A stretch of 64,000 bases of DNA, from NCBI GenBank assembly GCA_964450915.1, contig CAYVFG010000001.1:1694-65693 (forward strand). The letters are read 5' to 3'. The translations under genes were made by a program, and so were the position numbers. Below are positions 1-32,417 of the stretch, in pieces; the stretch's first letter is position 1; the number at the start of each line of letters is the position of its first letter. The notes under the pieces are model-generated. The model worked only from the letters and a program-made list of their open reading frames with translations. It was not told where the DNA came from and did no database searches. This DNA comes from an uncultured Candidatus Saccharibacteria bacterium. GTDB lineage: Bacteria > Patescibacteriota > Andersenbacteria > UBA10190.

Positions 1-1
1 T

Positions 2-2161
2 ATCGTCAACAATTCGGCCAGCGTGCAGACGATTAGCTTTGGTGGTACGGGCATCACCCTGGGTGCAGCACAGACGTGGAATTCAGGCCTTGTCCCGTTG
101 GGGGGGCTGAGTGTGGGCTCTGCGGTTGATCTGGCAGGTCAGGCACTGACGGTCGATGGCACCAACAATACAACCATCTCGGGTGCGATCTCTGACACGG
201 TTGTCGGCGGCTCACTTGTCAAAAATGGTTTAGGAACGCTTCTTTTGAGCGGCACGAACACCTTCACTGGGACCACCACCGTCAATCAGGGCATCCTGCA
301 GCTTCAAAACGGAGCAGCGATTGCAGACACGTCCGCAGTGACCGTGACGGCACCAGGTTCACTCGACCTGCTCACAAGTGAAACCATCGGCAGCCTTGCA
401 GGCAGCGGCGACACCACCCTCAACGCCAATACCCTGACCACAGGCGGTGACAACACCTCAACCACCTACAGTGGTGTTCTGAGTGGCGTCGGCGGCTCAC
501 TGGTCAAAAATGGCGCAGGAACGTTCACGACATCGAACATCCTTCCCAACACCTATACGGGCACCACGGCAGTCAACGCGGGAACTCTCAATGTGCTGGG
601 CACCCATGCCGGTGGCGGAAATTACACCATTGCCGCAGGCGCCACGCTTTCAGGCACGGGAATCATCACAGAGGCTGCGGGAGCTTCCATCTTCAACAAC
701 GGGGCGATTGTTGTAGGCGATTCCACAGTCATTCCTGTTGCATCCACACTCTCAATCACCACCTCAGGCGCAGGCGCGATCACCATGGGAGCCGGCAGTA
801 CTTTGGCGGTCGATCTCTTCACCGGTGCCGGTCTTGGAAACAACACCGTCATTCCAGGTTCTTCTGACACGTTCAACCTCGGCGGCAATCTCAATTCTGT
901 TGCTGGCGGCACCCTGGTCATTGGCAATCCTACAGCGATGACAGGCTTCACGGGTGGAGACAGCTGGAAAGTGGTGAATCTCGTTCCAGGCTCCATTACC
1001 GGCAATCTGGGTCTCACCGGCAATCTCGACACCTCTGCTCTGAATCTCACAGCGACTCAGGTGGGCAATTTCAGCCAGACTTCCGGTGTCTTCACGATCA
1101 TCGACACCATCACCGGTTTGCAAATGGCCAACGCCATGGGGCAGGCCGTGCTTGCCAGTACTCAGAGTGTCCTCACGGATGTGAATGGACGCCTGTTCTT
1201 CCTCCGTGCGGGTCAGGGCGACCTGTCCGATGACAGCGAGTACGACCAGGCCGTGGTCAATGATCCGGGCAACGGTTCTGGCAAGAACCCTGCACCAAGA
1301 CCAACGGTTCAGCGCCGTCCCCAGACGGGTCTGTGGCAGGTTTTTGCCACGGCAAACTACAACAACGCCAGGCTCGGCGCTCTCGGCAGTCAGCAGGCGG
1401 GAATCCAGTCTGACAGCTGGAGTCCAGGAGTCGGCGCTGAGGTTCATGTCACACCGAATGTGGCCATTGGTTTCGCCCTCAACTGGCTGGAGTCCAAACA
1501 GACCTTCGGGAATGGCGTCGGCTCCATGGACATGAATGGTTATGCACTGAGCGCCTACACTTCTTATGTGAAGAAGGCATTTTGGGCGGATCTCCTTTAT
1601 AGCTTCGGCAGCTATGACATCGAAACGAACCGCAACCCGATCGGGTTCGGCATGGCTAACGGTAACACCGACGCCTACACCAACACGGTGCAGTTTAACT
1701 CGGGCTGGAACTTCCGTTTCCAGAACAACAGCTTGGTGACCGGTCCGTTCATTGGACTCGACTACACCCACGTCTCCATTGACGCCTATGGAGAGTCTGG
1801 TGGCGGCCTTGGGGCCCTGGCCTACAACAAACGTACCGCTGAGTCCCTGATCTCCCGCATTGGCTGGTCGGTGAGCAAGTATGTCAAAACAGACTTCGCC
1901 GTCATCACTGCACAGGCCCGTCTGAGCTACGAGCGCCAGAACTTGAGCAACAACAGCGGCGCCACCATTGGCCTCATCAATCAGCCATTCGTGGTAAGCG
2001 GCGGCAGTCAGAGCTATGGCCAGGATTACATGGTCGCAGGAGCTGGCCTGAACTTCCAGTTCACGCCAAACCTCGGTTTGCTCCTCAACTACCAGGGTCA
2101 GTTCTTCCGTCAGTCAGTGCAGGCTCATTACGTGGGCCTGCGCCTCAGCTACAAATTCTAA
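2..2161 (+). CDS. Autotransporter-family outer-membrane protein (passenger with beta-strand repeats plus C-terminal beta-barrel), 5'-partial: frame is open to the window start
   Basis: G/T/S-rich repetitive passenger (GTLLLSGTNTFTGTTTVNQGILQLQNG repeated); C-terminal beta-barrel-like domain ending ...LRLSYKF (aromatic terminal residue); intrinsic terminator follows. Confidence 0.7.
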   Translation: MVNNSASVQTISFGGTGITLGAAQTWNSGLVPLGGLSVGSAVDLAGQALTVDGTNNTTISGAISDTVVGGSLVKNGLGTLLLSGTNTFTGTTTVNQGILQLQNGAAIADTSAVTVTAPGSLDLLTSETIGSLAGSGDTTLNANTLTTGGDNTSTTYSGVLSGVGGSLVKNGAGTFTTSNILPNTYTGTTAVNAGTLNVLGTHAGGGNYTIAAGATLSGTGIITEAAGASIFNNGAIVVGDSTVIPVASTLSITTSGAGAITMGAGSTLAVDLFTGAGLGNNTVIPGSSDTFNLGGNLNSVAGGTLVIGNPTAMTGFTGGDSWKVVNLVPGSITGNLGLTGNLDTSALNLTATQVGNFSQTSGVFTIIDTITGLQMANAMGQAVLASTQSVLTDVNGRLFFLRAGQGDLSDDSEYDQAVVNDPGNGSGKNPAPRPTVQRRPQTGLWQVFATANYNNARLGALGSQQAGIQSDSWSPGVGAEVHVTPNVAIGFALNWLESKQTFGNGVGSMDMNGYALSAYTSYVKKAFWADLLYSFGSYDIETNRNPIGFGMANGNTDAYTNTVQFNSGWNFRFQNNSLVTGPFIGLDYTHVSIDAYGESGGGLGALAYNKRTAESLISRIGWSVSKYVKTDFAVITAQARLSYERQNLSNNSGATIGLINQPFVVSGGSQSYGQDYMVAGAGLNFQFTPNLGLLLNYQGQFFRQSVQAHYVGLRLSYKF

Positions 2162-2187
2162 GTCATTAACGTTCACCGTTAAATCCC

Positions 2188-2223
2188 GGGGGGCATTGCT
2201 GAAAGGCAATGCCTCCTTTTTTG
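2188..2223 (+). terminator. Rho-independent terminator after the autotransporter gene
   Basis: GC stem gggcattgc / gcaatgcc followed by tttttt. Confidence 0.6.
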
Positions 2224-2228
2224 TGGCT

Positions 2229-3353
2229 CTAAATTCCCGCACGTTTCGCCCGCAGCACTTCCTCCACCTCTCCCAGCGGCAGGCAGTTGATCACATCCTT
2301 CCGCGTGAGCCAGCCTTTGCGGGCGGCTTTGATGCCATAGATCACCGCCTGCAATCCGTGCGTGCTGTGGGCATCGGGGTTGATGCTGCATTTCACGCCT
2401 TTCGCTTTCGCGAGCTTCCACCAGCGCCAGTCCATGTCCAGACGCCACGCGCTGGCGTTGAGCTCGATGATGGTGCCGGTTTCCGCGGCGGCATCGATCA
2501 CGGCAGCCACGTTCACATTGTAAGCAGGGCGCTGCAGCAGCAGCCGTCCCGTGAGATGTCCCAGCATGGTGACGTGCGGATTCTCAATGGCTCGAATGAT
2601 GCGCTTCGTCATCTCCGCCTCGGGCAAATTGAAGACGTTGTGCACGGAGGCGACCACATAATCGAGCTGGCCCATAATCTCGTCACTGAAATCGAGGCTG
2701 CCATCCTTGAGAATGTCCACCTCGCTGCCGGCAAAGATGCGGAAGCCCTCTTCGGCCATCTCCTCATTCAGTGCCTTGATCTCTTCGATTTGTTTCAACA
2801 GTCGCTTCTCATCCAGCCCATTCGCCTGGAAAGACGACTTGCTGTGATCGGCGATGCCAAGGTACTGCAAACCCAGCTCATGCGCCGCCTCCGCCATCTC
2901 GCGCAAAGTCGCGCCACCATCGCTGGCGGTGGTGTGGTTGTGAAAGACACCGCGCAGATTCTCAAGCTGGATGAGGCGTGGCAGACCACCGTGCTCGGCG
3001 GCATCTATCTCGCCCGTGTTCTCCCGCAGCTCAGGATCGATGAAGTCGAGATCCAGCGCGCGGTAGAGTTCCGCTTCATCATGAACCGGTGGAATGACCG
3101 GCGCATCCGCATGATCCGGCACCGGCGTGAAGCCATACTCATTGAGCGACCAGCCACGAGCAAGCGCACGCTGGCGGATGGCCACATTGTGCTCCTTGCT
3201 GCCGGTGAAGTAGACCAGCGCAAAAGGGAACTCCTTGCTCGATACGGCACGCAGATCGCACTGCACCCCATGAGTGACGTGCACACTGGCTTTCGTCGGC
3301 CCTTTGGCGATGACATCCACCACCAGTGGCAGTTGCACAAAGGACTCGATTAC
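2229..3353 (-). pseudogene. DNA polymerase X family fragment (thumb + PHP phosphoesterase domain only); N-terminal 8-kDa/palm region missing; frame closes with a stop inside the first hairpin of the repeat island
   Basis: FALVYFTGSKEHNVAIRQRALARGWSLNEYGF (PolX thumb) followed by a PHP-domain histidine-rich region; no ATG start; in-frame stop at 3354-3356 coincides with hairpin 3354-3376. Confidence 0.55.
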
Positions 3354-3939
3354 CTAGTAAGATTTTTCACTTGCTCCGCGCCCCAGTCAAGACCAGCATG
3401 CTGGAGAAAACGCTACCTATCTTCACAGCATTTAACACCAGCAAGAACAAATTCCTGCTCACAACTCTACGGAACCATGCCATACGTTAGTTGACTCTAC
3501 TGAACTACGCGACGATACACTAGCAAAGTTTCTTGCTCGTAACTTCACACCGGCTTAGTGAGCTGGACGTTAGGTAGCGGTATGATACCAGCAAGAATTG
3601 CTTCCTGCTCTCCACAAAAGGCCAATCAAGTTTAGTTTAATCAAGTCCACTGAATTGTACTAAAGCACGCACCCTAGCAAGAAATAAATCTTGCTCACGA
3701 CATTATTGTAGCGAAGTATACAGCTCCTAATCGTAGGATACTGGACAATGCGATAACACCAGCAAAATTTCTTTGCTCTCTGCTTTAGTCTGCAAAGGGG
3801 AACAACGAATTACTGGAGTCCGCTCAAGTGTATACACTAGCAGAATTTTCATTCTGCTCGCCAAGCAGTACAGTCAACCTCAATTCAGGACAGGTTAAGC
3901 CACGGCAGCATGCCAACACCAGCAAACAGCTGTTTGCTC
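3354..3939 (-). repeat. Hairpin-unit array 1a: 8 units of conserved short stem-loop (AGCAAG-loop-CTTGCT) separated by ~50-65 nt of unique sequence; CRISPR-like but noncanonical
   Basis: Hairpins at 3354-3376, 3437-3460, 3519-3538, 3587-3610, 3674-3696, 3758-3778, 3836-3859, 3918-3939; loops differ; mismatches resolve to G-U pairs on the minus strand. Confidence 0.7.
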
Positions 3940-4050
3940 GCAACCACGCGAAACTATACGTGACTGAAACTCACGTAACGACACTGCACCGAACCTAATT
4001 GAATCAATTGTCAAACAACGATCAACATCCCCCTTTCTGCTGAATATCAG

Positions 4051-4088
4051 GAACGGATTAAAATAACATATTATCATATTTTTTGCAA
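4051..4088 (-). promoter_or_regulatory. Conserved AT-rich junction element, promoter-like (TTGCAA -35-like box directly abutting the upstream terminator T-tract), reading toward array 1a
   Basis: ggaacggattaaaataacatattatcatattttttgcaag; near-identical copies at 7378-7420 and 9606-9650. Confidence 0.4.
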
Positions 4089-4118
4089 GAAAAAAGCGAG
4101 AGTAATGAAACTCTCGCT
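4088..4118 (-). terminator. Intrinsic terminator (minus strand) closing array 1b / helicase transcription unit
   Basis: stem agcgagag...ctctcgct followed by a T-tract on the minus strand (A-tract 4088-4095 on plus). Confidence 0.6.
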
Positions 4119-4173
4119 GTGCACTGTTGTTAACTTCACAGGAGGAAGCAAAACAGCACTTTACTTAATGAAC

Positions 4174-4770
4174 ACTAGCAAGAATTTCATCCTGCCCTGG
4201 ACAATAGCCTAGCTAACTAAAGAACGCTGGAGCGAAGACTACTAAAGCTCAAATACCAGCAAAATTTCTTTTGCTCTATACTACACCAAGCAGCAAGGAA
4301 GTGTGCGTTAGTCTACCAGAGATCACGCTATTTTATAGAAGCGAGAATTCTAAAATTCCCGCCCTGGAACATAGGATAAGGTACTTGGCGGAAGCCCGGG
4401 ATACTCAGCCTAATTTAAACTAGCAAGTTTTCTTGCTCGTTATGCTACGTGAGCATACGTTAGTCCAGATTGCTTAAGTCTGCGACACTCCACTCCAATA
4501 CCAGCAAGAAATAAATCTTGCTCTACAGAAAGCATAAGAACAAATTACTGGAGCCAACAAGACTGGACACTATACACTGGCAAAATTTCTTTGCCCGAAA
4601 CGTTAGGCCAGCCTAATTAAGTCTAGCGAGCTACGACATACAGGACGACACTATGTACACTAGCAAAAAATCTTGCTCTTTACCGAAGAGAACTCCACAA
4701 AGCCCTGCGAGAGCCTACCTAACTTCAGTGTAAGATATAAGAGAAGCGAGGATGCAAGCATCCTCGCCCT
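4174..4770 (-). repeat. Hairpin-unit array 1b: 9 units; immediately downstream (minus strand) of the helicase gene
   Basis: Hairpins at 4174-4197, 4255-4276, 4339-4364, 4419-4438, 4500-4523, 4576-4596, 4658-4678, 4746-4767 (plus 4339 and 4746 long-stem gcgag variants); 4500-4523 identical to 9424-9447. Confidence 0.7.
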
Positions 4771-4815
4771 ACACTCGGCTTCGCTGCAATTCAGAGCAGG
4801 TCACCATACTTCACT

Positions 4816-6672
4816 TCATGTTCTCTGACTCAGCAAATCCTCTGCATCACGAATGCAGTTCTCAAACGGCAAGTCGCTTCGGTAGGATTTCTCCAACCAA
4901 GGAGGCAAAGCCCCCCACACAATCTTCTTGAATTGTTGCGAGATGAAGAATGTAACTCCAACATCTCGCGTACTTCGAACATTGCGTCCGCGCACTTGTA
5001 ACGCTTGCTGCATCACACGCCAATTCCACAGCGCCCACCTGGCACCACCGAACCGCTTCTCTTCGAACTGTGTTCCGGGATCCGTTGGTACAGGGTATCC
5101 GGGCCGCAGAAAGAAGATGATCGGTGCAGTCTGTTTTGGCAGATCAACACCCTCAGCGTAGTTGGAAGCAGTGCCTACCAAGCAGTCGCCTACCCCTTCC
5201 TTGAACTTGATTGCGGCTTGCTTTGCGGTAACGCCATTCCCGTAGCTGATCGCTTCAAGCTTCTCTTCTTTTGCAAGCTGAAGAAACTTGTCACGCTCAT
5301 CATTGGAGATGGTAACCACCAAGCTGCGATGCCCCTTGAGCGCAAATCGTTTTGCCGCACGAGCAATCTTTCGAATGCTTTGTGTCATGTCGCGCGCAGT
5401 CCGCGTGTTCATGGCAAGATTCGGCGTGTCCGTCGGCAAGTACAGCCTTGTATTTCCCGAAGGAAAGTTGGATTGCAACTGCAAGCACGGAAACCGAATC
5501 CCCGTTTCGTGTCCGAAGATTTCAGGATCACCGATCGTCGCAGAAAATGCGACAGTCAGCGGAGGCAGAATCTTTCGAATCAGCGGGGCCACATAATAGC
5601 ACCGCACCACGAGCTTGCACTCCACTAAGTCTCGCTCTCCTTTCTCGAACTTGTAGAAGGCACACGTGTAATTGAGCGGCTTTCGCTCTTCGGTCTCGAG
5701 CGAATACTCAAAAGAATGTGAATACCGGCGCAAATCTCGCACCAGTGTTTCCAATTTCTTGAGCGCCACTCGATCCTCTTTCGCGTCGATGGTTCCGTTT
5801 CTCACGGCCTTCTCAATACGCGAAAGAAGTTTTCCCGAATCCACGTCTTCCAAGATCACCATCAAGCGGCGAAGTTCTGCATCCGTAAGAAGTACTGGCT
5901 CGTCGAGTTTCCTCTTCTTGCAAATGTACTTCATGGAAGCAAGAAACTTTTCCAGCACTTCAACTTCCGGAGCATCTATCCGAGTCAGCAATTCGATAGA
6001 CCGTTCCAGATGGTAATCTGTAATGTCGTACGAAAGCGAACTGCGAACGATTTCCGCAATCCGATGCGCTTCATCAATCACGAGCGCGCCCGTTTCCGGG
6101 AACTCATGACTGAACAGTTGAGTGAACAAGTAGAACGACGTGGTGCAAACCACGACGCCCCCTTGCTTCGCTTCGAACTTCTGCTGAAGATACGGACAAG
6201 CAGTTGCCCCCGGCTCAAACGTTTCTCCTGTTGTTTGATCAACCCGGTGAGGGCATGCCTTCAACATCGAACACGGAACTTCGTCAGCTTTGATGGTTTT
6301 TGAATCCAACGTAAGCTGAACCAGCTCTTCGTCACCGATGACTGATTGCCCTTGGTAATACAAGCACGGATGCTCGCATCGCCCCAAGGCAATTTTTACG
6401 TCTGGAAACTCCTCCCTGATTTGCCCTACCAACGTTTTGTTGGGAGTGACAAAAAATGAGGTACCTCCATCGCGCTGCACCGATGCTTCAAGCCATGCTT
6501 TGGCAACTGCCGTTTTCCCTGAACCTGTCGGGGATTCAACGACCGCAGACCCGTTCTGGGCCAAAAATTCCATCATTTCATCTTGGCCTTTCCATGGGCC
6601 ATTTGCGTACCTTCCGCCTCGCGGAAAGCTAGCCTGCAATGCGTTCAGGCTAAGAGGGTTCTGATGTTTCAT
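4816..6672 (-). CDS. Rad3/XPD/DinG-like superfamily-2 helicase with Fe-S cysteine cluster between Walker A and B (Csf4/DinG-like)
   Basis: Walker A ESPTGSGKTAV, DEAH box VIDEAHRIAEI, Cys-rich insert (CEHPC, CSMLKACPH, ACPYL, VVVCTT) between them; start ATG at 6670-6672 (MKHQNP) with GAGAAGGAA RBS. Confidence 0.7.
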   Translation of the reverse strand: MKHQNPLSLNALQASFPRGGRYANGPWKGQDEMMEFLAQNGSAVVESPTGSGKTAVAKAWLEASVQRDGGTSFFVTPNKTLVGQIREEFPDVKIALGRCEHPCLYYQGQSVIGDEELVQLTLDSKTIKADEVPCSMLKACPHRVDQTTGETFEPGATACPYLQQKFEAKQGGVVVCTTSFYLFTQLFSHEFPETGALVIDEAHRIAEIVRSSLSYDITDYHLERSIELLTRIDAPEVEVLEKFLASMKYICKKRKLDEPVLLTDAELRRLMVILEDVDSGKLLSRIEKAVRNGTIDAKEDRVALKKLETLVRDLRRYSHSFEYSLETEERKPLNYTCAFYKFEKGERDLVECKLVVRCYYVAPLIRKILPPLTVAFSATIGDPEIFGHETGIRFPCLQLQSNFPSGNTRLYLPTDTPNLAMNTRTARDMTQSIRKIARAAKRFALKGHRSLVVTISNDERDKFLQLAKEEKLEAISYGNGVTAKQAAIKFKEGVGDCLVGTASNYAEGVDLPKQTAPIIFFLRPGYPVPTDPGTQFEEKRFGGARWALWNWRVMQQALQVRGRNVRSTRDVGVTFFISQQFKKIVWGALPPWLEKSYRSDLPFENCIRDAEDLLSQRT

Positions 6673-6758
6673 GACCTTGCGTTCCTTCTCATTAATCATC
6701 CAAATTGTCAAACAGCACTGTTCGCAGCGCCAAAAAAGGCACAAGCTACGAACTCATT

Positions 6759-6788
6759 TTTATAGCATATCTTACTATTTTTGTAAAG
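6759..6788 (-). promoter_or_regulatory. Sigma70-like promoter for the helicase gene (TTTACA-N18-TATAAA)
   Basis: -35 tgtaaa at 6783-6788 and -10 tttata at 6759-6764 read on the minus strand. Confidence 0.4.
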
Positions 6789-6798
6789 TATCTTTGGG

Positions 6799-6832
6799 TA
6801 AAAAAAGAAGCAGGCGTTTTGGAACACCTGCT
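6799..6832 (-). terminator. Intrinsic terminator (minus strand) closing array 2a
   Basis: agcaggcgttttggaacacctgct stem-loop followed by T-tract (A-tract 6799-6807 on plus). Confidence 0.6.
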
Positions 6833-6895
6833 CGGTAACTTGCTTCACTGTGCCTAAGTGGACATCAGGACAAAGAACAACGCCTCAGTGGATAT

Positions 6896-7321
6896 ACCAG
6901 CAAGAATAAACTTGCTCTAGACTACTCGGAAGAATACTTCACTCGAGGACAGGTTGCGCTACACCAGTGCATTACACTAGCAAGCCGAAGCTTACTCAAG
7001 ACTCAGGGGTACGCCAGATTAGGCTGCTTAGCGAAACCTCGCGCTAGGCCATAACACTGGCAAATCGCAATTTGCTCCCTACACGACATTAGTTTGCTTG
7101 GCTAGGGTCTACAGTGCAGAAACGCACTATACAAAATCAAAGAGTAGCAAGAATTATTTCTTGCTCTGGGGTGAAAAGGACCACAGGATACGGTAGTGAA
7201 CTGCGACAAACTAGAAACACCAGCAAGAATAAACTTGCTCTCCACACCTACACAACTTTGCAACAGTATGCGAGACGCCAAAGTACTGAGGAATAACACT
7301 AGCAAGAAGTTATTCTTACCC
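6896..7321 (-). repeat. Hairpin-unit array 2a: 6 units
   Basis: Hairpins 6896-6917, 6976-6997, 7056-7077, 7143-7166, 7219-7240, 7298-7321. Confidence 0.7.
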
Positions 7322-7377
7322 TACAAAAAATGGCAATCTAGACTACTCGACCCAAGCCCACGGAATTTAATGAGTTG

Positions 7378-7455
7378 TTAAAGAACAAACTAAAATAACA
7401 CAAGATTATATATTTTGCAAGTAAAAAAAGAAGCAGGCGTTTAGAAACACCTGCT
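7378..7455 (-). terminator. Terminator (7423-7455) plus conserved promoter-like junction element (7378-7420) separating arrays 2b and 2a
   Basis: agcaggcgtttagaaacacctgct + T-tract, then TTGCAA and AT-rich box; near-identical to 9606-9685. Confidence 0.55.
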
Positions 7456-7510
7456 ACGCACGGAGCGCGAATTAACTCTACGTCAGAACGCTGTAGTTAA
7501 CTTCATTACC

Positions 7511-7783
7511 CTAGCAAGGAAGAAACCCTGCTCATAACCGTACTTACAAGACACTTAAGCAGGCAGCTGTATACTGCAGAGCGCATAACTACATACACTA
7601 GCAAGAAATGAATCTTGCTCTGCACGTTGCTTTGCTGCTGAATAATGGACTGCAGATAGCTGCACCTAACCGCGCATACCGGCAAGAATGCTCTTGCCCG
7701 CCACCCTAACCAACTGCTCAGCAATGGAGAGGACCCCAGTTTACCTTACTCAGAAGTAACAATGGCAAAGCGATCCCTTGCTC
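7511..7783 (-). repeat. Hairpin-unit array 2b: 4 units; begins 18 bp after the stop of the 211-aa RAMP-like gene (likely co-transcribed)
   Basis: Hairpins 7511-7533, 7597-7620, 7678-7699, 7761-7783. Confidence 0.65.
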
Positions 7784-7800
7784 GAACCTGAACGAGACAA

Positions 7801-8436
7801 TTACGAAGTTTGTTCGTTCCATTCACGAACCCGAAATGCTCCATACGGCCCCTTCTTATTGGGACGATACAATCCTAGCCCTTGACCTTGTCCAGCCATC
7901 TGAAACAATCGAACAAGTTTTTCACGAAGTATCATGTTGTGATCATACGAAATGTTGATCACGAATCCCCACTGGTCAAACCGGGGATATGAAGTGTAGA
8001 CCAATCCTCGGTGTCTCGATGTTTGAGGTGATATGTGACGTACGTGGCATACCCAATCGGGCTCTCGTTCGTCATGCCCGTTGGAAAGAACCGTGAATTC
8101 ATCTTCGAAACGAATGACCTCACTGATAATGTCTTCCGCGCTTCTGCAGCATCTAAGCGAGTTCTGACAACGAAGCGCAGCAACTACTGCCCCGCAAAGC
8201 ATTGAATTTGGTATCGCCACTTTACCCGCCGGATTCCGATAGATGCATGCTGCGGCACGATCTCTAAAAGATTCTCTTTTGATGACACTCATCACTTCTT
8301 CGGAAAATTTGTTCATGATGAGCGGACTTGTACCGATGCAGGCAATGGCAACTGAGCGCATGTCTGCTTCAGGATCTGCGACTCGACCAATCAGTATGCG
8401 GTCATTTACGATTACCATACGACGAATCTTCCCCAT
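7801..8436 (-). CDS. RAMP-like protein (Cas5/Cas6-like size, C-terminal glycine-rich loop), 211 aa
   Basis: C-terminal AGQGQGLGLYRPNKKGPYGAFRV glycine-rich loop; internal IPNSMLCGAVVAALR motif; paralogous to 11550-12206 and 10440-11348; GAGGAA RBS. Confidence 0.45.
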   Translation of the reverse strand: MGKIRRMVIVNDRILIGRVADPEADMRSVAIACIGTSPLIMNKFSEEVMSVIKRESFRDRAAACIYRNPAGKVAIPNSMLCGAVVAALRCQNSLRCCRSAEDIISEVIRFEDEFTVLSNGHDEREPDWVCHVRHISPQTSRHRGLVYTSYPRFDQWGFVINISYDHNMILREKLVRLFQMAGQGQGLGLYRPNKKGPYGAFRVREWNEQTS

Positions 8437-8543
8437 TATTTATTCCTCAAATTGGAACAGAACAATCAAAAAATCATCCAATAGAATCATCTATTGGAAC
8501 ATGATAATTTAGCATAATATTGAAATAAAGTCAAAATTTACGC

Positions 8544-8575
8544 AAAAAAAGAAGCAGGCATATAAAACACCTGCT
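8544..8575 (-). terminator. Intrinsic terminator (minus strand) closing array 3
   Basis: agcaggcatataaaacacctgct + T-tract (A-tract 8544-8550 on plus). Confidence 0.55.
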
Positions 8576-8628
8576 CTAAAAGAAGCTACAGTGAACCTGG
8601 CTAGAATCTACGCTAGGACACGCAAATA

Positions 8629-9532
8629 CACTAGCAAGGGAACCCCTGCTCTGTGCCGTATTGAACCGCACGTTAGTTTACGCTGCGAGACCAAACGGCA
8701 ATACCAGCAAGACTAAACTTGCTCTCCCAGGACACAGTAATCTAGGTTACTGTACTACGCTCAAGTGATCTCTACAGAACAGAATAATACTAACAAGAAT
8801 GACAACACTCTTGCTCGATACGGCACCCTAGGAAACGTAACTCAACCCTAGAGTAGCGCTGACACAAGCAAAAACTTGCTCTCAACGAAACCTTTGTTCG
8901 CCTAACACCAGCCAACCGAGGGACACTGGGCATCAGAACACGCCAGTGCAAACAATAGCAAGATTTTTCTTGCTCGACACCAAAGGTGACGGGACTGAAC
9001 TACAGGCCAGAAAACTATATACACTAGCAGGAAGAGCCCTGCCCATAACTGCTGTGCGCACTAGTTGACGGGAACACACGTAACCCTGGGGGACCTAATA
9101 CACTAGCAAATCGGAACTTGCCCAACACCTTAGCCGGCATTAACACACTAAACGCAAGCCTAGCGGAACTAAGACAGAAGCAAGCAACGCTTGCTGATTA
9201 CTAAGGCGAAGAAAACTCTGCTCAAGTCAAGGACTCTCAACTCAAGTCTACCTAAAATACTAGCAAGGAAATTCTTGCTCAGCATGACACACTACCGCTC
9301 AGCACAACAGACTTCTGAAGAAAGCTACAGGCTAGAGAAGATTAATACTAGCAAGAAAACTTGCTCATCACTTCAGAAAGGAAAACGTTGCGAAAGTAGA
9401 CTGTGCGTTACTCTGGGTAATACACCAGCAAGAAATAAATCTTGCTCGCTAGCGGAGCGTATAATAGCGAACTCAAGAAAACCTGGCGGGGCTGCACTCC
9501 ACTTCAACACTAGTAAGAAAGGCTTCTTGCTC
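8629..9532 (-). repeat. Hairpin-unit array 3: 12 units
   Basis: Hairpins 8629-8651, 8703-8724, 8789-8816, 8864-8883, 8954-8975, 9023-9044, 9102-9123, 9177-9197, 9259-9280, 9347-9366, 9424-9447, 9509-9532. Confidence 0.7.
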
Positions 9533-9605
9533 TTTAGTACACTCGAAAATGGGCCACGAAACTAGGCAAGAGCAAACCTAAGTTCACTACACGTACTTCT
9601 TAAGT

Positions 9606-9685
9606 TGTTAAAGAACGAATTAAAATAACACAAGATTATATTTTTTGCAAGTAAAAAAAGAAGCAGGCGTTTGGAAACACCTGCT
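9606..9685 (-). terminator. Terminator (9653-9685) plus conserved promoter-like junction element (9606-9650) between arrays 4 and 3
   Basis: agcaggcgtttggaaacacctgct + T-tract; TTGCAA abuts the T-tract; AT-rich box follows. Confidence 0.55.
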
Positions 9686-9732
9686 CGAGACTGAGCCTAA
9701 GCCCACTAGAGAGCACGTAACATCACGTGAAT

Positions 9733-10305
9733 ACTAGCAAGAGACTTCTTGCTGCGCGCCAAAGATAACGACAAGAAAGAACACGATACTACGCCAGACG
9801 AACATACACCAGCAAGTCGAAACCTGCCCCAAACGCCACCGTGACATACAATATCGTACGACACTCAAACAAGCTATACTGAATCCAGCAAACCAGCAGA
9901 ACTATTTCTGCCCTCGACAAAACGGCGCCGTAGACGACTTGAATATAGGGTACTGTGCTAAACCAAATACACTAGCAAGGCTTGGCCCTGCTCCTCACGA
10001 AAGACGAGATTACCCCAGCAGACTCAACTTTAGAGTGCAGTGCGATAACACAAGCAAGAAAATTCTTGCTCTCGAGAACGGGGTGCTTTACGCCGGGGTA
10101 CGTAAGCCGACGCCAGGGTAACTTATAACACAAGCGAGCAACTTCTCGCTCTGCACCAAACCAAACTGGAATGTAGGTAACAGTGTCGTAGCGCAGAATA
10201 TCACACAAGCAAGAATAAACTTGCTCACCACTATAGCGGACCGTGCCAGGCATGAGTCCAGTCGACGTGACGAGAGCACATTATAATAGCAAGAGAGTCT
10301 TGCTC
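9733..10305 (-). repeat. Hairpin-unit array 4: 8 units
   Basis: Hairpins 9733-9754, 9808-9829, 9892-9913, 9971-9993, 10049-10073, 10129-10151, 10204-10226, 10287-10305. Confidence 0.7.
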
Positions 10306-10365
10306 ACAAACAATAGTCGAACGGACCGGAACAAACTGCACTAAAGCACGCTTGACGTTAATAAA

Positions 10366-10398
10366 GAAGCGGGCAATTCAGATGAATCACCCGCTTTG
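10366..10398 (-). terminator. Probable terminator after the 312-aa RAMP-like gene
   Basis: aagcgggcaattcagatgaatcacccgctt stem-loop with weak T-tract on the minus strand. Confidence 0.4.
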
Positions 10399-10439
10399 GA
10401 CTGCGCTGCAAAGCAGGTTAGTCAACAGCAGAACAGTAT

Positions 10440-11348
10440 TTACACCAGCGAGATGCCGTATGCCTGCTTGGCAAATGATGTTTGTCGAGGAGTGGAAAAT
10501 CTCCCACCCGACCGAACAAATGGTTCATCAAGCTTTTCGTACGTCACCCGCTCACCAGGTACCAAGAACTGCCGAAGTGGGCGCTTCGGAGCGTCTCGCC
10601 ATCCGACGCGCGCCGTAATCCGCTGATCACCCACGTAGGTGATGATCGTGCCGACACCTCGAGCTTGGTAGAAACTTTCCACCACGCCTTCGTTGTCTTG
10701 AAGATCATGCGGAACTTGCAACTCAGGCTCCTCCACATACTCCGCTCCCGAAGGAATGACGAGTTCTGGACGAACAAGTTGTTCCATCAACATCCAGTCT
10801 GCCAACAAATTGTTGAACGACTGGTGCCGTTCGAGCCGCGGAAATGTTGGTCCGTCTCGATCAACGCATTGCAATCGATCATAGGCAAGTTGAACGGTGA
10901 GAAAGAAGTTGCCGCCTTGCGAGACGACCGCCACCTTCCACACGTTCATAAGATTCGTAGGCGAGCTCCCGTTCAAGACAAGCCCTGCAATGCAGAGCAT
11001 GTTGTTGGGGTAGCTCACGAACGATTCGCCTTGGCCATCGGTGCTGGCTTCGACCGGCATCTTAATGCCGTACACCTTCGATCCAGAAGGAAGTCCGCGA
11101 GCGGCTACTGCCGCTTGCATCTCCTTCTGAAATGGCTTTTTGGGCTCGCCAGGCGCAGCCCAGTCTCGCTGAAGCCTGCACTCGTCGCTGCCTTGTCGGA
11201 TAAATCCGAAGCAAGGAACGCCGGGGTCAACCGTGGCATCCAACACGACATGCCCAGAATAGAGCTTGCCCATGGACCCGTCTTCCGCAACGTCGATCAA
11301 TCGACCTTGCTTGTAGACATTCAGCGTAACACCAGGAATCCGAATCAT
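10440..11348 (-). CDS. RAMP-like protein, ~303 aa (Cas7-like size), paralogous motif to the two ~215-aa proteins
   Basis: YPNNMLCIAGLVLNG motif shared with IPNSMLCGAVVAAL / LPAQMLIAALVTAG; upstream TTGACA-N17-TACAAA promoter; fully antisense ORF 10482-11375 judged to be a shadow. Confidence 0.4.
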   Translation of the reverse strand: MIRIPGVTLNVYKQGRLIDVAEDGSMGKLYSGHVVLDATVDPGVPCFGFIRQGSDECRLQRDWAAPGEPKKPFQKEMQAAVAARGLPSGSKVYGIKMPVEASTDGQGESFVSYPNNMLCIAGLVLNGSSPTNLMNVWKVAVVSQGGNFFLTVQLAYDRLQCVDRDGPTFPRLERHQSFNNLLADWMLMEQLVRPELVIPSGAEYVEEPELQVPHDLQDNEGVVESFYQARGVGTIITYVGDQRITARVGWRDAPKRPLRQFLVPGERVTYEKLDEPFVRSGGRFSTPRQTSFAKQAYGISLV

Positions 11349-11425
11349 GATTCCAACCCTTCTTTTGCAAATTGACAACGATCAACCACACAATCTCGAA
11401 AGGCACTCCCAATCGAGAACATTGC

Positions 11426-11454
11426 TTTGTAGCATGACTTGCATAAAATGTCAA
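11426..11454 (-). promoter_or_regulatory. Sigma70-like promoter (TTGACA-N17-TACAAA) for the 312-aa gene, directly abutting the upstream terminator
   Basis: tgtcaa 11449-11454 and tttgta 11426-11431 on plus. Confidence 0.45.
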
Positions 11455-11488
11455 GAAAAAAAGAAGCGAGAGTAATGAAACTCTCGCT
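11455..11488 (-). terminator. Intrinsic terminator after the 218-aa RAMP-like gene (same hairpin family as 4088-4118)
   Basis: agcgagagtaatgaaactctcgct + T-tract on the minus strand. Confidence 0.6.
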
Positions 11489-11549
11489 ATTTACTTCTCC
11501 TAACGTTGAATTGGGAACAGATAGACGTTTCAAGACACGTCCGAACGAA

Positions 11550-12206
11550 CTAAGCCGCCGCTTTGCCTTCTTCCTTTCCGTCGACCACGATCTTGATGGT
11601 GTTGTCGGATGAAGCGACAGCGTCGTCGTTCCATTCGATGACCCGGAACATTCCGTACGGCCCCTTCTTGTTCGGGCGGAACGATCCGAGTCCCTGGCTG
11701 GTACCGGCGTTGGCGAACAGCTTGAGAACCGAGTCGCGTCCGGCGATCTTTTCGTCGTACGTGAGCTCAACTTCGAACGCCCATTCGTCGCATCGCGGAC
11801 GGACGACGCACACAGCCACGGGACTCGCCGAAGCATTGCTGACGCCTCGCCTGCTGTCGGGAACCCATGTCGGCTCCTTCCCATCCCGACCGTTCGTGAG
11901 GTACAGGTGCTGGCTCGTCACCGTCAAGAAGTCGAACAAAGTCGTGGTCTGCGCTGTCGAGACCTGCTTCTTGCCGAGCTTGACATTGCGACCAGCGGTC
12001 ACCAACGCTGCGATCAGCATCTGTGCCGGCAGGGCGAGCTTACCATCCTTGTCGGTGTAGACCTTTTCCTTGGCCTTTTCCTCTTGAGGACGATCCTTCT
12101 GGAGTTGGAGCCGAACGCCGGTATCGAGGCTTTTGAGCACCTCTTCCGACATCCGATCCATCAACAAAGGGCTGATCCCCACGCACACGCATCGAACTTT
12201 TCGCAT
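11550..12206 (-). CDS. RAMP-like protein (Cas5/Cas6-like size, C-terminal glycine-rich loop), 218 aa
   Basis: AGTSQGLGSFRPNKKGPYGMFRVIEWND loop nearly identical to the 211-aa paralog; LPAQMLIAALVTAGR motif; GGAG RBS. Confidence 0.45.
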   Translation of the reverse strand: MRKVRCVCVGISPLLMDRMSEEVLKSLDTGVRLQLQKDRPQEEKAKEKVYTDKDGKLALPAQMLIAALVTAGRNVKLGKKQVSTAQTTTLFDFLTVTSQHLYLTNGRDGKEPTWVPDSRRGVSNASASPVAVCVVRPRCDEWAFEVELTYDEKIAGRDSVLKLFANAGTSQGLGSFRPNKKGPYGMFRVIEWNDDAVASSDNTIKIVVDGKEEGKAAA

Positions 12207-12303
12207 GGCTGAACTCCAATTCTTCTATTGTAAAGACACGAAACGATTGTTCCATCAAGACCTTTTCTTGCGGAACAAATGACCCTAGCATAATGATAAA
12301 ATC

Positions 12304-12352
12304 TTGTCAATAGCAAAAGAAAAAGACCCCGATGCCACGTGGCAAAGGGGTC
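12304..12352 (-). terminator. Terminator (gacccc...ggggtc + T-tract) with abutting TTGACA -35 box; marks the upstream boundary of the island operons
   Basis: Same terminator-then-promoter architecture as the internal junctions. Confidence 0.45.
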
Positions 12353-12377
12353 AGGGCAAATTCACCCTAAAACATTA

Positions 12378-12560
12378 TTACGACTTCTTGGCATTTTGAG
12401 AAAGATGAGCGTACTTGTTTTGCGCCTTCCCTCTCCTCAAGCGCCTGCTTTTGCGAGTCTCGCCGCCCGGTTTCTTCATCTTCTTGCTGCTGCCGCTTTT
12501 CCCACTTGTACCAGTAAAGTGGGTACTTTTGTGAGAATGCCCACGATTACTACGAGCCAT
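12378..12560 (-). CDS. Small lysine/arginine-rich hypothetical protein (60 aa)
   Basis: MARSNRGHSHKS...; followed by the terminator at 12316-12352; no family recognised. Confidence 0.3.
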   Translation of the reverse strand: MARSNRGHSHKSTHFTGTSGKSGSSKKMKKPGGETRKSRRLRRGKAQNKYAHLSQNAKKS

Positions 12561-12678
12561 TACGATTTCCCTTTCAATTTCGCACTAAGAAAGAACACGT
12601 TAGGATATTATACATATTATCTTAATAACGTCAAGTTGTGTTCGATGCATGTCGGTATACCCTTATATATGAAAAGAG

Positions 12679-13341
12679 GTGATATTTATGAATATACGAA
12701 ACACGTTTATAAAAACTGTCGGATTTGCTCTCGTACTTGTAAGTTCATTTTTACTTGTACCAGTAACGCATGCATCTACAGGATTACTTGATCGCGTACA
12801 TGAAGCGCTCGTTACTGCCAATCTTCCCACTGACCAAAAAACGCAGCAAGCATACGACGTATGCGTTATCAGCGGACACTATACAACATTCGAACAATTG
12901 GTAAACGCAATGAAATGGCAAAAACAACACGGCCATACTATTCCAGATGTAATGAAGTGCATGGACACGAAGAATGTTTGGAAATTCACCGGAGAAGTCA
13001 CAGAAGTAAACAAATGGAAGCTGGAAACAGTTGGTGTTACAAAAAATGGATTGGAAACTCGGCCGAAGTTCGATATTACCAACCATACCGTTGTAAAACA
13101 TGGCGTGCTGTTATTCGATGCAAACTACCAGATGCACTACAACGTGAAGGATGAAATTCGAAGAGGTTCTGCCGTTACCGTATGGGCAACACACAACAAT
13201 GAAGCGCTGATTATCCAGAACAATGCGCCGCACGGACAAGGAGACTATTACGGACACGTTGATTGCCCGTCATGCCAAGTAGACAATACATTTGCCGCAA
13301 CCCCAGATCCGATTATCAACGAATATCACTGCGAAGATTAA
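12679..13341 (+). CDS. Secreted hypothetical protein (signal peptide), paralog of 13480-13896
   Basis: AGAGGTGA RBS; N-terminal hydrophobic signal; C-terminal VTVWATHNNEALIIQNNAPHGQGDYYGHVDCPSCQ shared with the neighbour; terminator follows. Confidence 0.6.
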   Translation: MIFMNIRNTFIKTVGFALVLVSSFLLVPVTHASTGLLDRVHEALVTANLPTDQKTQQAYDVCVISGHYTTFEQLVNAMKWQKQHGHTIPDVMKCMDTKNVWKFTGEVTEVNKWKLETVGVTKNGLETRPKFDITNHTVVKHGVLLFDANYQMHYNVKDEIRRGSAVTVWATHNNEALIIQNNAPHGQGDYYGHVDCPSCQVDNTFAATPDPIINEYHCED

Positions 13342-13363
13342 CTCGAAAGCAACGCATGAAGTA

Positions 13364-13400
13364 TCAATACCCCCGTCATTAGCGGGGGTATTGATTTTTT
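13364..13400 (+). terminator. Rho-independent terminator
   Basis: tcaatacccccgtcattagcgggggtattga + tttttt. Confidence 0.65.
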
Positions 13401-13479
13401 GTCAGCAAATTATAACGCATTGCGTTTGCGAATACTGCCATGATTTGTATGGTGGATATATGAAAGAAGGTGATAGCGT

Positions 13480-13896
13480 ATGAAAACATTACACAAGATA
13501 CGCGCAGTAAGCGCCGCAGTTGCTGTTATTATTTCAATCGCTTTCTTTCAGTTTGCGCGTGCCGCAGACACCACATTTACTCCCGGAACCTGGGTATTTA
13601 CCGGCATGGTAACGGAAGTAAATCAGAACAAGATTGAGTTATTTGGAATGAATGCAAACGGAGTAGAGGCATGGCCAAAATTCAGCATCACGCCCGATAC
13701 TCAAGTAAAAAACGGGGTCTTATTGTTCAATGCAAGCAACGACGTTCGATGGAATGTTCCCAACGAAATCCAGCGAGGATCATCGGTAACAGTATGGGCG
13801 ACCACATCCGGCAAGGCAATGGTTATTAAAAACAATGCTCCGGCAGGCCAAGCAGACTACTACGGACAAGTTGACTGCTCGCATTGCGGCAGTTAA
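13480..13896 (+). CDS. Secreted hypothetical protein, shorter paralog of 12679-13341
   Basis: GAAGGTGA RBS; signal peptide; VTVWATTSGKAMVIKNNAPAGQADYYGQVDCSHCG. Confidence 0.6.
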   Translation: MKTLHKIRAVSAAVAVIISIAFFQFARAADTTFTPGTWVFTGMVTEVNQNKIELFGMNANGVEAWPKFSITPDTQVKNGVLLFNASNDVRWNVPNEIQRGSSVTVWATTSGKAMVIKNNAPAGQADYYGQVDCSHCGS

Positions 13897-14393
13897 AGCT
13901 CTTGATTGATGAGCTGGTCAATATCCAAATACTTGGTCACCATCGCAATTTGACCAGCCTCGTCTTTCAGCCATTGTTCTTGCGGGCGATCGCAATACAA
14001 CTCAATACCATTCCCATCCGGGTCATCGAGATACACGGCTTCCGAAACACCATGATCAGAAGATCCCGTAATCGGATATTTGGCATCTAAAATCCGCTTT
14101 ACCGTTTCGGCAAGCGCTTTTCTCGATGGCAATAAAATCGCAACATGATAGAGCCCCGTATGTCCCATAGGCGCCGGCCCCCCGTCTTTGCTTTCCCACG
14201 TATTAAGCCCAATATGATGATGGTAACCGCCTGCGGACAAAAAGACTGCCTGATCCCCAATGCGCGATTGCACTTCAAACCCCAAAATGTCGCGATAAAA
14301 CTTCAGCGAATTATCGATATTCGACACCTTTAAGTGCACATGCCCGATTGTTGTTTGTGGATCTATACTCATACTCTTGAGTATAGCGCACAA
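13893..14393 (-). CDS. VOC (glyoxalase/bleomycin-resistance/dioxygenase) family protein
   Basis: HVHLKVSNIDNSLKFYRDILGFEV... typical VOC fold motifs. Confidence 0.6.
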   Translation of the reverse strand: MCAILKSMSIDPQTTIGHVHLKVSNIDNSLKFYRDILGFEVQSRIGDQAVFLSAGGYHHHIGLNTWESKDGGPAPMGHTGLYHVAILLPSRKALAETVKRILDAKYPITGSSDHGVSEAVYLDDPDGNGIELYCDRPQEQWLKDEAGQIAMVTKYLDIDQLINQEL

Positions 14394-16205: not shown

Positions 16206-16229
16206 AATAATTGGATGTGAATAAAAATC

Positions 16230-17573: not shown

Positions 17574-17785
17574 GCTCCCGTAATGTCACAAAATATGCCA
17601 TGTGGGCTCAGGTCCGATTAAGTTGTTAGTGCATGCATCATAGAACATACGGGAAAACATGTCAAATCTCCCGCACTAGACAAGCTCCCTATTTCGTACT
17701 ATTATACTCCTCGTCCTAAATACCTATGGTTGGTATGCCACGGACGGCTCGTTAAAAATTCAAGACGATAGAAAAGGAAGCAAAC

Positions 17786-18535: not shown

Positions 18536-18640
18536 CAGTTCAGCGCACCTTCGTAAAAACTCAACACCCCGTCGTTCAATTGAACTTCTGGGTGTTTTAA
18601 TTTGTCCTTGCAAATTACCCCGAGCGTAGTCGAGGGGTTA

Positions 18641-19015: not shown

Positions 19016-19047
19016 TCCATCATACAGCCCGTAGTAGGGTTACTGCA

Positions 19048-22440: not shown

Positions 22441-22470
22441 TTTCATACTTGAAAGGAGGTGTTTGAACAT

Positions 22471-22893: not shown

Positions 22894-22939
22894 ATAAACA
22901 CACACGCATAACAAATCCTCCGTGTGGAGGATTTGTTAT

Positions 22940-32391: not shown

Positions 32392-32417
32392 ATCTTATCC
32401 ACAGGTATAATGAAAAT

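Follow-up and report, generated by a model that had tools for sequence, protein, structure and literature searches.

The window, meaning the whole 64-kb stretch of DNA that was analysed, begins with the C-terminal part of an autotransporter gene and, convergent with it, a fragment of polX (Table 1). The polX fragment ends at a repeat island. The island contains six arrays of short hairpin units, a helicase gene, the genes of two small RAMP paralogs and the gene of a 302-aa protein. Its right edge is at position 12630, and chromosomal genes continue from there to the end of the window.

Table 1. Positions of the genes, arrays and other features along the window.
Feature	Position	Strand	Description
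Autotransporter gene, C-terminal 719 codons	1-2161	+	Pfam Autotransporter and PATR
Intrinsic terminator	2188-2217	+	Between the convergent autotransporter and polX genes; 13-pair stem, then T run
polX fragment	2229-3353	-	Thumb and PHP, matching the whole protein from residue 209 to 582; true Prosthecobacter sequence
Seam	3353-3356		Minus strand: B ...CTTACTAG then GTAATCGAG... polX; shared sequence at most 2 nt
First hairpin	3356-3375	-	3' tail hairpin of the last (promoter-distal) vrRNA unit of array 1; one C-A mismatch
vrRNA array 1	3356-4000	-	8 units, ~82-nt period; promoter module at the right, no terminator at the left
Terminator-plus-promoter module	4050-4118	-	AGCGAGAGT...ACTCTCGCT, T run, then TTGCAA-17-TATTTT
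vrRNA array 2	4119-4771	-	~8 units
Helicase terminator	4744-4769
DinG/XPD-like helicase, 618 aa	4816-6672	-	PADLOC typeIV_DinG, E 3e-41, full length
vrRNA array 3	6834-7330	-	6 units; ends at terminator 6808-6833
vrRNA array 4	7456-7705	-	3 units; ends at terminator 7432-7455
Vipr paralog 1, 211 aa	7801-8436	-	35% identity to the 218-aa paralog; phrog_4652
vrRNA array 5	8577-9560	-	~11 units; ends at terminator 8552-8576
vrRNA array 6	9687-10310	-	~8 units; ends at terminator 9661-9686
Terminator of the genes upstream of array 6	10367-10396
Protein of 302 aa	10440-11348	-	No recognisable family
Vipr paralog 2, 218 aa	11550-12206	-	Cas7-like RAMP; family profile against PDB chain 36pp_D
Right edge of the VIPR locus	12630		Rightward, the window matches related Andersenbacteria contigs

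The polX fragment and the left segment

The minus-strand ORF at 2229-3338 encodes 369 aa from a GTG codon; counted from 3353, where the open frame starts, it has 374 aa. An in-frame ATG does not occur until 2897. Upstream, the open frame is closed by an in-frame TAG at 3356-3354. The hairpin AGTAAG-atttttca-CTTGCT (3356-3375) has this TAG at its 5' foot. The original prediction had the frame running to a stop inside the first hairpin. The stop is where it was placed, and the hairpin coordinates given for it, 3354-3376, are right within 2 nt.

In the Pfam search, the fragment contains DNA_pol_B_thumb (PF14791; residues 45-111, E 5e-20) and PHP (PF02811; residues 137-300, E 2e-9) and no domain besides these two. 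It shares 93-96% protein identity with Prosthecobacter PolX proteins of 579-584 aa and aligns to their residues 209-577. Approximately 208 N-terminal residues are absent, the region in which the relatives carry HHH_8, HHH_5 and palm domains. The earlier claim that the ORF retains only the thumb and PHP domains and lacks an N-terminal core of ~200 aa is therefore confirmed by both the Pfam search and the alignment. Bacterial PolX has an N-terminal 8-kDa/HhH region, fingers and a palm with the catalytic site, as well as a thumb and a C-terminal PHP domain; only the thumb and PHP are found here. The fragment resembles Prosthecobacter PolX in protein and DNA identity and in its synteny with a convergent autotransporter gene, but residues 1-208 and a proper start codon are missing. 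As judged from its domain content, the fragment cannot be a polymerase, because HhH/8-kDa, fingers and palm are missing. The missing 5' 623 nt do not lie elsewhere in the 64-kb window, which contains no second polX match.

Positions 1-3354 of the window are 99.4% identical to a 317-kb contig of the Prosthecobacter sp. MAG GCA_054605445.1, with 20 mismatches and no gaps. They are likewise 99.4% identical to an independent Logan contig from SRR36271378. In both sequences (L013/L014), an intact 582-aa polX is followed by lpxD. L013 also encodes a 1329-aa PQQ protein upstream, as well as NlpC/P60 and an M20 peptidase. Two less close relatives (L003 and L012) have a whole polX as well, so the comparison with related genomes that had been proposed does recover an intact gene and an empty site. 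Nucleotide homology to five Prosthecobacter polX loci stops at window positions 3343-3355, and at 3354 for the three closest loci (L003, L012 and L013/L014). Of the 20 positions that differ from the Prosthecobacter MAG, eight lie in the final 80 nt before the seam, nearly all of them at third codon positions. The polX stretch just before the seam appears to be a strain-variable patch, and assembly graphs are prone to fragmenting at such patches.

Two short PolX proteins were considered as further cases of the truncation and rejected: in one (P0015, 386 aa) a scaffold run of N splits the gene, and in the other (P0078, 394 aa) the gene is cut by the contig end. Exact protein look-ups with seven alternative starts of the fragment gave no further contig that encodes the 369-aa protein.

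The autotransporter is 100% identical to P0165 (838 aa, from a 143,829-nt contig) and to P0166 (839 aa, from a Prosthecobacter sp. MAG). The source contig extends at least 357 nt beyond the left end of the window, since the autotransporter is full length (838 aa) there. Syntenic Prosthecobacter DNA is present over at least 3.7 kb.

The GC content is 57.8% in positions 1-3354, 47.9% in 3355-12630 and 45.0% in 12631-64000. In 100-nt windows, it drops from 0.59 (3250-3349) to 0.46 (3350-3449), that is, within ~100 nt. The step that had been noted near 3350 is thus present, and the figure of ~45% GC downstream is right on average, with local values of 35 to 55% to the right of the seam. The suggested tetranucleotide comparison also sets 1-3354 apart from the rest of the window (r = 0.02-0.09), while the correlation of this segment with Prosthecobacter loci is 0.86-0.88. 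The island has r = 0.6 with Andersenbacteria and r = 0.12-0.14 with Prosthecobacter. The left segment is unameliorated, and both ORFs in it are intact.

The hairpin arrays and the proteins of the island

VIPR systems consist of a Vipr RAMP and vrRNA arrays; seven types have been published, some of them with a helicase-type accessory gene (bioRxiv 10.64898/2026.04.26.720920, 10.64898/2026.04.26.720927). Two Vipr RAMP paralogs, ~42 vrRNA units and a DinG-like helicase make the repeat island a VIPR locus.

The units form six arrays delimited by promoters and terminators, except that array 1 is without a terminator. Each unit consists of a pentanucleotide tract and a hairpin tail. The promoter-like and terminator-like sites predict transcription from the minus strand. 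A hairpin of 6-9 bp is present in every unit, with mismatches that can be read as G-U pairs of the minus strand. The first hairpin aligns with 37 other tail hairpins, and compensatory changes occur at five of seven pairs in the family. In 32 tracts, the power at period 5 is high compared with shuffles (z = 11) and periods 3, 4, 6, 7, 8 and 10 are without signal. With the phase chosen to fit, position 1 of the minus-strand pentamers is G/C in 81% and position 2 is T/C in 94%. Tandem pentanucleotide repeats in the YNNGG form or a variant of it, followed by a conserved structured 3' tail, are characteristic of VIPR systems, and both are found here.

The terminator hairpin at 4095-4118 has a second copy at 11465-11488. 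Array 1 alone of the six arrays lacks a minus-strand terminator, which indicates that it is cut by the seam. Exact DNA searches of genome and metagenome collections gave no match to an array-1 tract or to the terminator module. No tRNA genes or Rfam families are found in the hairpin units.

A family profile built from 81 relatives matches PDB chain 36pp_D, 'SUSP1 Vipr protein', over the full length with E 1.2e-12 (positions 4-198 against 1-192 of 202). The AF2 model of Vipr paralog 2 has a pLDDT of 95.9, and its best PDB folds are Cas7, Csm3 and Cmr4. This corresponds to the small, single-RRM, Cas7-like RAMP of VIPR systems. A copy of Vipr paralog 1 that is 100% identical is present in Logan contig L009. 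In a single-protein scan of viral contigs with Vipr, one distant relative was found (L015), with a strong period-5 signal directly downstream of the gene. The helicase contains Pfam Helicase_C_2, DEAD and DEAD_2, and its NCBIfam YoaA/DinG match is well under the family cut-offs. It is probably the vap accessory gene of the locus. The 302-aa protein, which has no match in Pfam, NCBIfam, PADLOC, PHROGs or PDB sequences, is possibly a second accessory gene.

The locus resembles published VIPR systems in its Vipr homologues of ~20-24 kDa, its helicase-type accessory gene and its arrayed guide genes of less than 100 nt, in which pentanucleotide repeats precede a conserved structured 3' tail. The published pentamer is YNNGG, whereas here it is S-Y-N-N-N (a G-Y-N-N-N or 'YNNNG' variant). 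The locus also differs in its simple hairpin tail, its ~42 units in six arrays, its two Vipr paralogs and its CPR host.

A degenerate type IV CRISPR-Cas locus, with the first hairpin as the terminal CRISPR repeat, is a highly improbable identity for the island. The accessory helicase does match PADLOC typeIV_DinG over its full length (E 3e-41), as Csf4/DinG of type IV-A would, and the minus-strand units resemble class 1 repeats in having a hairpin followed by a conserved stretch of 7-8 nt. However, a type IV locus has Csf1, Csf2 (Cas7), Csf3 (Cas5) and Cas6/Csf5 together with an array of identical repeats. No Csf1, Csf2, Csf3 or Csf5 gene is found with NCBIfam, PADLOC or PHROGs, and the 'repeats' are non-identical with co-varying stems. 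The 'spacers' have the strong 5-nt periodicity (z = 11), and the small proteins are Vipr homologues. The type IV reading concerns the identity of the island only and not the seam. REP/RAYT elements, IS200/IS605 ends and integron attC sites were also considered and rejected: there is no HUH transposase or integrase, the units all point in the same direction and the tracts are 5-nt periodic.

The chromosome to the right

Positions 12630-64000 are Candidatus Andersenbacteria (CPR) chromosome and match independent contigs at 98-100% identity. At 90% identity, the TypA, NhaD and PBP proteins of the window cluster with Candidatus Andersenbacteria MAG proteins, whose accession numbers run in the gene order of the window. 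Over positions 12630-23019, Logan contigs of as much as 70 kb match at 98-99% identity, and contigs from SRR8931222 match at 100%. The gene order of the CPR part matches that of a 470-kb Andersenbacteria MAG contig. In all, at least 60 kb to the right of the break is CPR chromosome, with genes for TypA, a DEAD-box helicase, MacB/HlyD, NhaD, PBP and ABC transporters.

In related Andersenbacteria contigs, ParB and an integrase are found where the window has the VIPR locus. The leftward continuation in related CPR strains consists of CPR genes (ParB, integrase, P-type ATPase) over more than 55 kb. Two independent Logan assemblies from two runs (L010 and L011) span positions 10364-13212 at 100% identity and cross the edge at 12630. 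These spans, the recurring terminator hairpin, the Vipr paralogs at both 7801 and 11550 and the tetranucleotide profile together place the repeat island (3355-12630) on the CPR chromosome. No integrase or transposase is found with Pfam, NCBIfam, PADLOC or PHROGs in any ORF from 3354 to 12630.

The seam and its origin

The seam is 2 nt past the tail hairpin of the last vrRNA unit and in register with the repeat structure. The chance of such register in an 80-nt unit is roughly 5-10%. This hints at a hairpin-dependent event, which is equally possibly biological. The 8 nt following the hairpin (AGGTAATC) score poorly against the post-hairpin motif of the units, and the rank of the native polX site against this motif is unremarkable. 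This limits the shared sequence to 2 nt at most, and target-site mimicry cannot be claimed. Junction 30-37-mers are absent, by exact search, from GTDB genomes and JGI metagenome contigs, collections that appear to be without the source sample. Logan contigs of the window's strain are only 1.6-3 kb long.

By best match and by composition, the two sides of the seam are from different organisms, and these belong to different phyla: Prosthecobacter to Verrucomicrobiota, Andersenbacteria to the CPR (Patescibacteria). The cut in polX and the jump in GC coincide with the point at which Prosthecobacter and CPR DNA meet, which makes a mis-joined contig likelier than an island within a gene. The contig is probably a chimeric mis-join in which Prosthecobacter DNA is fused to a CPR chromosome. 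The original prediction had offered insertion or replacement by the repeat island and, alternatively, a chimeric assembly join. The second of these is favoured, as Prosthecobacter assemblies at 99.4% identity to the left side carry a whole polX, the composition switches completely at one position and the CPR locus is broken in mid-array; the first is not supported. Where unameliorated chromosomal DNA of two phyla meets in a MAG contig, an artefact is generally far more frequent than a recent transfer. The shortening of polX is likewise likely to be the end of a Prosthecobacter chromosome fragment and no biological truncation within a genome.

In such a mis-join, the end of the CPR contig would have been inside the repetitive, strain-variable vrRNA array and the end of the Prosthecobacter contig in the strain-variable polX patch. 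An assembler, a scaffolder or a chimeric template molecule from library preparation may have artificially fused the two ends. The hairpin at the seam would then be merely the tail of the last vrRNA unit surviving on the CPR side. Inter-genome chimeric MAG contigs are similar in that phylum signal and composition flip at one base, the join is in a repetitive, strain-variable region, and the foreign genes are intact and near-identical to those of a free-living organism. The join in the window differs from these in having no shared k-mer and in being in register with a repeat unit. Because 2 nt or fewer are shared, too short to mislead a de Bruijn graph assembler, an additional artefact must be assumed. 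This is taken to be a chimeric template or an error of a scaffolder or merger.

It is less probable, and on balance unlikely, that the junction is real. Andersenbacteria would have taken up Prosthecobacter DNA, and illegitimate, near-blunt end joining beside the vrRNA hairpin would have been accompanied by deletion of the remainder of array 1. The position of the seam exactly at a unit boundary, 2 nt past the tail hairpin, is congruent with this. Microhomology of 2 nt or less typifies illegitimate joining and is unlike what k-mer mis-assembly needs. A real junction would also fit the known proneness of inverted repeats to breakage and the common view that CPR bacteria possess competence genes and scavenge foreign DNA. 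However, the fragment is 99.4% identical to free-living Prosthecobacter, its ORFs are whole and its composition is entirely that of Prosthecobacter. This leaves room only for an extremely recent transfer, one that is nevertheless already dominant among the CPR cells. As cargo, half a polymerase and an autotransporter of the outer membrane would be of no use to the recipient, and the syntenic Prosthecobacter DNA is possibly much longer than 3.7 kb. The junction is also seen in no independent contig of the collections searched, which appear not to hold the source sample.

The insertion of a mobile or horizontally acquired hairpin-repeat island into a Prosthecobacter polX, or the replacement of part of the gene by it, is very improbable and close to refuted. 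The gene is cut cleanly at the edge of the island with a sharp GC drop, and VIPR loci are often carried by mobile elements (bioRxiv 10.64898/2026.04.26.720920). The 'island', however, would amount to over 60 kb of CPR chromosome that includes housekeeping genes and is syntenic to the 470-kb Andersenbacteria contig, and the boundary has no integrase or transposase. The 5' 623 nt of polX are absent from the window. Genomes at 99.4% identity to the left side keep polX intact, although an empty site in relatives is equally expected for a chimera and does not discriminate between the two. Prophages and ICEs that split a host gene also truncate it at a sharp compositional boundary, but such elements have a recombinase near one end and the other half of the gene with a duplicated att at the far end. 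Neither an integrase, an att repeat nor a second gene half is present within the window, and the 'element' is the chromosome of another organism.

If the junction is an artefact, a public 143.8-kb MAG contig mixes two phyla and would contaminate an Andersenbacteria genome. It might be taken for a case of CPR-Verrucomicrobia gene transfer or of a 'truncated polX', and a split at window position 3354 would be warranted. A real junction would document recent DNA capture across phyla by a CPR bacterium, for which direct evidence is rare, and would give a clue to the host of that bacterium. It would directly record the uptake of several kb of DNA from a neighbour or host, and would suggest Prosthecobacter as a physical partner of the episymbiont lineage. 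The presence of a large VIPR locus in a CPR chromosome extends a newly described RNA-guided system to a further lineage, with a rich guide repertoire.

The polX fragment and its Prosthecobacter relatives

The truncation of polX is most probably not a biological feature. It lies at a seam (window ~3354) between Prosthecobacter (Verrucomicrobiota) DNA on the left and Candidatus Andersenbacteria (CPR) DNA on the right. As the original prediction held, the PolX open reading frame encodes thumb and PHP domains only and lacks its N-terminal part. Only two domains, thumb (E 5e-20) and PHP (E 2e-9), are identified by Pfam. When aligned with full-length Prosthecobacter PolX (579-584 aa), the fragment covers residues 209-577 with 93-96% identity, and the ~208 N-terminal residues (the portion with HhH, fingers and palm) are absent. 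The frame was predicted to run without a start codon up to a stop in the first hairpin. It is open between the stop at 2229 and an in-frame TAG at 3356-3354, which is at the foot of the hairpin AGTAAG-atttttca-CTTGCT (3356-3375). A GTG at 3338 is a possible start; the earliest in-frame ATG is at 2897. The predicted sharp GC discontinuity at ~3350 is also present: GC content is 57.8% at 1-3354, 47.9% at 3355-12630 and 45.0% beyond 12630, and 100-nt windows between 3250 and 3450 show a fall from 0.59 to 0.46.

In related genomes, polX is intact. lpxD, intact polX and a convergent autotransporter follow in the same order on L003 (JGI) and L012 (Logan), two contigs with 85-88% nucleotide identity to the window; the alignment stops at 3354. 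Two much closer contigs were located by a search with the autotransporter: L013, a 317-kb contig of the Prosthecobacter sp. MAG GCA_054605445.1, and L014, an independent Logan contig (SRR36271378). Window 1-3354 differs from both by 20 mismatches and no gaps (99.4%), and in both an intact PolX of 582 aa is followed by lpxD. At the seam (slash), the window reads ...CTCGATTACC/TAGTAAGATTTTTCACTTGCTC and L013 reads ...CTCGATCACC/AGCTCCGGCTTCCG.

Eight of the 20 mismatches to the Prosthecobacter MAG fall within the final 80 nt before the seam (3276-3351), and another seven cluster at 2373-2475. The clustered mismatches are at third codon positions almost throughout, which marks the sequence near the seam as genuine polX, diverged under selection within a patch that varies between strains. 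Both clusters look like strain-level recombination patches. Two database proteins with a similar apparent truncation are artefacts, one split by a scaffold gap and one cut off by a contig end. On the source contig (143,829 nt) the autotransporter has its full length of 838 aa, and that contig therefore extends at least 357 nt further left of the window.

The Andersenbacteria chromosome right of the seam

Tetranucleotide composition agrees with the assignment to two organisms. For the left segment, the correlation is r 0.86-0.88 with Prosthecobacter loci and r 0.02-0.09 with the rest of the window; for the right part of the window it is r 0.95-0.98 with Andersenbacteria contigs. From 12.6 kb on, the open reading frames encode TypA/BipA, a DEAD-box helicase, HlyD/MacB, RadC, a sigma-54 fragment, a histidine kinase, ABC exporters, NhaD and a penicillin-binding protein (PBP). 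By exact look-ups, TypA, NhaD and PBP cluster at 90% identity with proteins encoded by a Candidatus Andersenbacteria MAG; their counterparts are on one 470-kb contig, where accession spacing mirrors gene spacing in the window. The same TypA is present in Logan contigs from four groundwater runs. Three of these are 98-99% identical to window 12630-23019, and a SRR8931222 contig is 100% identical to 14221-17231; a sister run of this series is termed a groundwater metagenome (PMC8528159).

A low-GC block (35-40%) at 30500-37100 contains defence-type genes. The match of the ORF at 38516-39331 (271 aa) to the sigma-54 activator-interacting domain model is confined to what amounts to its C-terminal 41 residues; the ORF may have a mis-called start or be an rpoN fragment.

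Features of the window and of related contigs
Feature	Position	Strand	Remark
PolX fragment	2229-3353	minus	thumb + PHP domains
SMODS/AGS_C nucleotidyltransferase	30507-31847		
ResIII/SWI2-SNF2 helicase	33092-35428		
N6/N4 DNA methylase	35425-37101		
RadC	37177-37887		after defence-type block
Counterpart of variable site, Andersenbacteria contig L005	11861-14070		98-99% identity right of 12630
Counterpart of variable site, Andersenbacteria contig L006	7383-9592		98-99% identity right of 12630

The island of hairpin repeat units (3355-12630) belongs to the Candidatus Andersenbacteria chromosome. Left of 12630, within the promoter region of a 220-aa gene, the window diverges from related CPR contigs, in which this place is taken by ParB, a tyrosine integrase and a P-type ATPase; 12630 is thus a strain-variable site, with a VIPR locus in the window. 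Two independent Logan assemblies cross it at 100% identity (10364-13212, SRR8931222; 10370-12940, SRR8931208), which ties the right part of the island physically to the CPR chromosome. A third Logan contig covers 7458-9104 at 100% identity. Three features connect the left part of the island with the right: a terminator hairpin that recurs, terminator-promoter modules that recur, and a pair of paralogous genes. The 24-nt terminator hairpin (minus strand, AGCGAGAGT-ttcatt-ACTCTCGCT) is identical at 4095-4118 and 11465-11488, 7.4 kb apart, and the modules at 6760-6833, 7380-7455 and 9596-9686 have ~60-70 nt in common. Such repeats probably break short-read assemblies of the VIPR locus.

Origin of the junction

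The array adjoining the seam (array 1) runs leftward on the minus strand from a promoter module near 4050-4090 and contains eight units. The eighth and last unit has hairpin 3375-3356 as its tail, and polX begins two bases (AG) past that hairpin (minus strand, ...CTTACTAG/GTAATCGAG...). On the minus strand, there is a promoter-like site for each array. Each gene and, array 1 excepted, each array is closed by a strong intrinsic terminator on that strand, which for the arrays is a terminator hairpin with a T run; a scan finds 29 terminator-like sites (11.6 +/- 3.3 expected). Array 1 alone has no closing terminator, and the CPR locus is therefore cut in mid-array.

An artificial join of Prosthecobacter and CPR DNA, which the original prediction gave as its alternative, is the likely explanation. 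Organism and composition switch completely at one base. The left segment is unameliorated, with intact foreign ORFs and 99.4% identity to a free-living Prosthecobacter, and its cargo is of no use to a CPR cell, which lacks an outer membrane. The CPR locus is broken, and both parents are prone to assembly breaks at this point (one in a repeat array, the other in a patch that varies between strains).

Real capture of Prosthecobacter DNA by a CPR cell is unlikely. In its favour, the parents have at most 2 nt in common at the join, with no common k-mer to account for a graph mis-join, and the seam falls at a unit boundary beside a hairpin, a coincidence expected by chance in perhaps one of every ten to twenty cases. 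A hairpin-dependent event at the seam could be in vivo break repair or, equally, in vitro template switching. The resemblance of the polX site to the post-hairpin motif of the units is unremarkable in a motif-score test. The junction sequence was not found in other genome and metagenome collections, which appear not to hold this sample. The original proposal, by which the island was inserted into a Prosthecobacter polX or replaced part of it, is effectively excluded: the 'island' would be >60 kb of chromosome from a different phylum, it has no recombinase, and the window contains no second polX half.

The island as a VIPR locus

Whatever joined it to polX, the island is a VIPR locus, an RNA-guided system. 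Its genes encode a DinG-like helicase, two paralogous Vipr RAMPs (211 and 218 aa, 35% identity) and an orphan protein of 302 aa, and it has six arrays. The helicase (618 aa) matches the PADLOC typeIV_DinG model over its full length (E 3e-41). Pfam assigns the paralogs to no family. They are members of a large one (1448 cluster representatives match at E <= 1e-3). A profile of 81 members matches PDB chain 36pp_D, 'SUSP1 Vipr protein', over its whole length (E 1.2e-12), and the closest folds to the AF2 model (pLDDT 95.9) are Cas7-type RAMPs.

The arrays comprise ~42 vrRNA units with a period of ~80 nt, each with a 6-9-bp hairpin (AGCAAGA-loop-TCTTGCT). Among 38 aligned units, compensatory changes occur at five of the seven stem pairs, and many stem mismatches are G-U-compatible on the minus strand only. 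The 32 inter-hairpin tracts have a 5-nt periodicity (z = 11 against shuffles) and no signal at other periods.

In published VIPR systems, of which there are seven types, the Vipr RAMP is ~20 kDa, helicases are among the accessory genes, and the guide RNAs are <100 nt and consist of 9-16 pentanucleotide repeats and then a conserved structured tail (bioRxiv 10.64898/2026.04.26.720920). The island matches this description in its RAMP, helicase and guides. Its tail is the co-varying hairpin, and its pentamer consensus is S-Y-N-N-N (minus strand), which corresponds to the YNNNG variant; published pentamers are YNNGG, with variants NNNGG, YNNNG and NNNNG (bioRxiv 10.64898/2026.04.26.720920). A distant Vipr relative (26% identity) is present on a viral contig (IMG/VR UViG_3300030380_001143, 7001-7856). 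In the stretch directly after it, which is presumably its vrRNA array, 5-nt periodicity is very strong. For CPR bacteria, the island provides a good new case of a VIPR locus.
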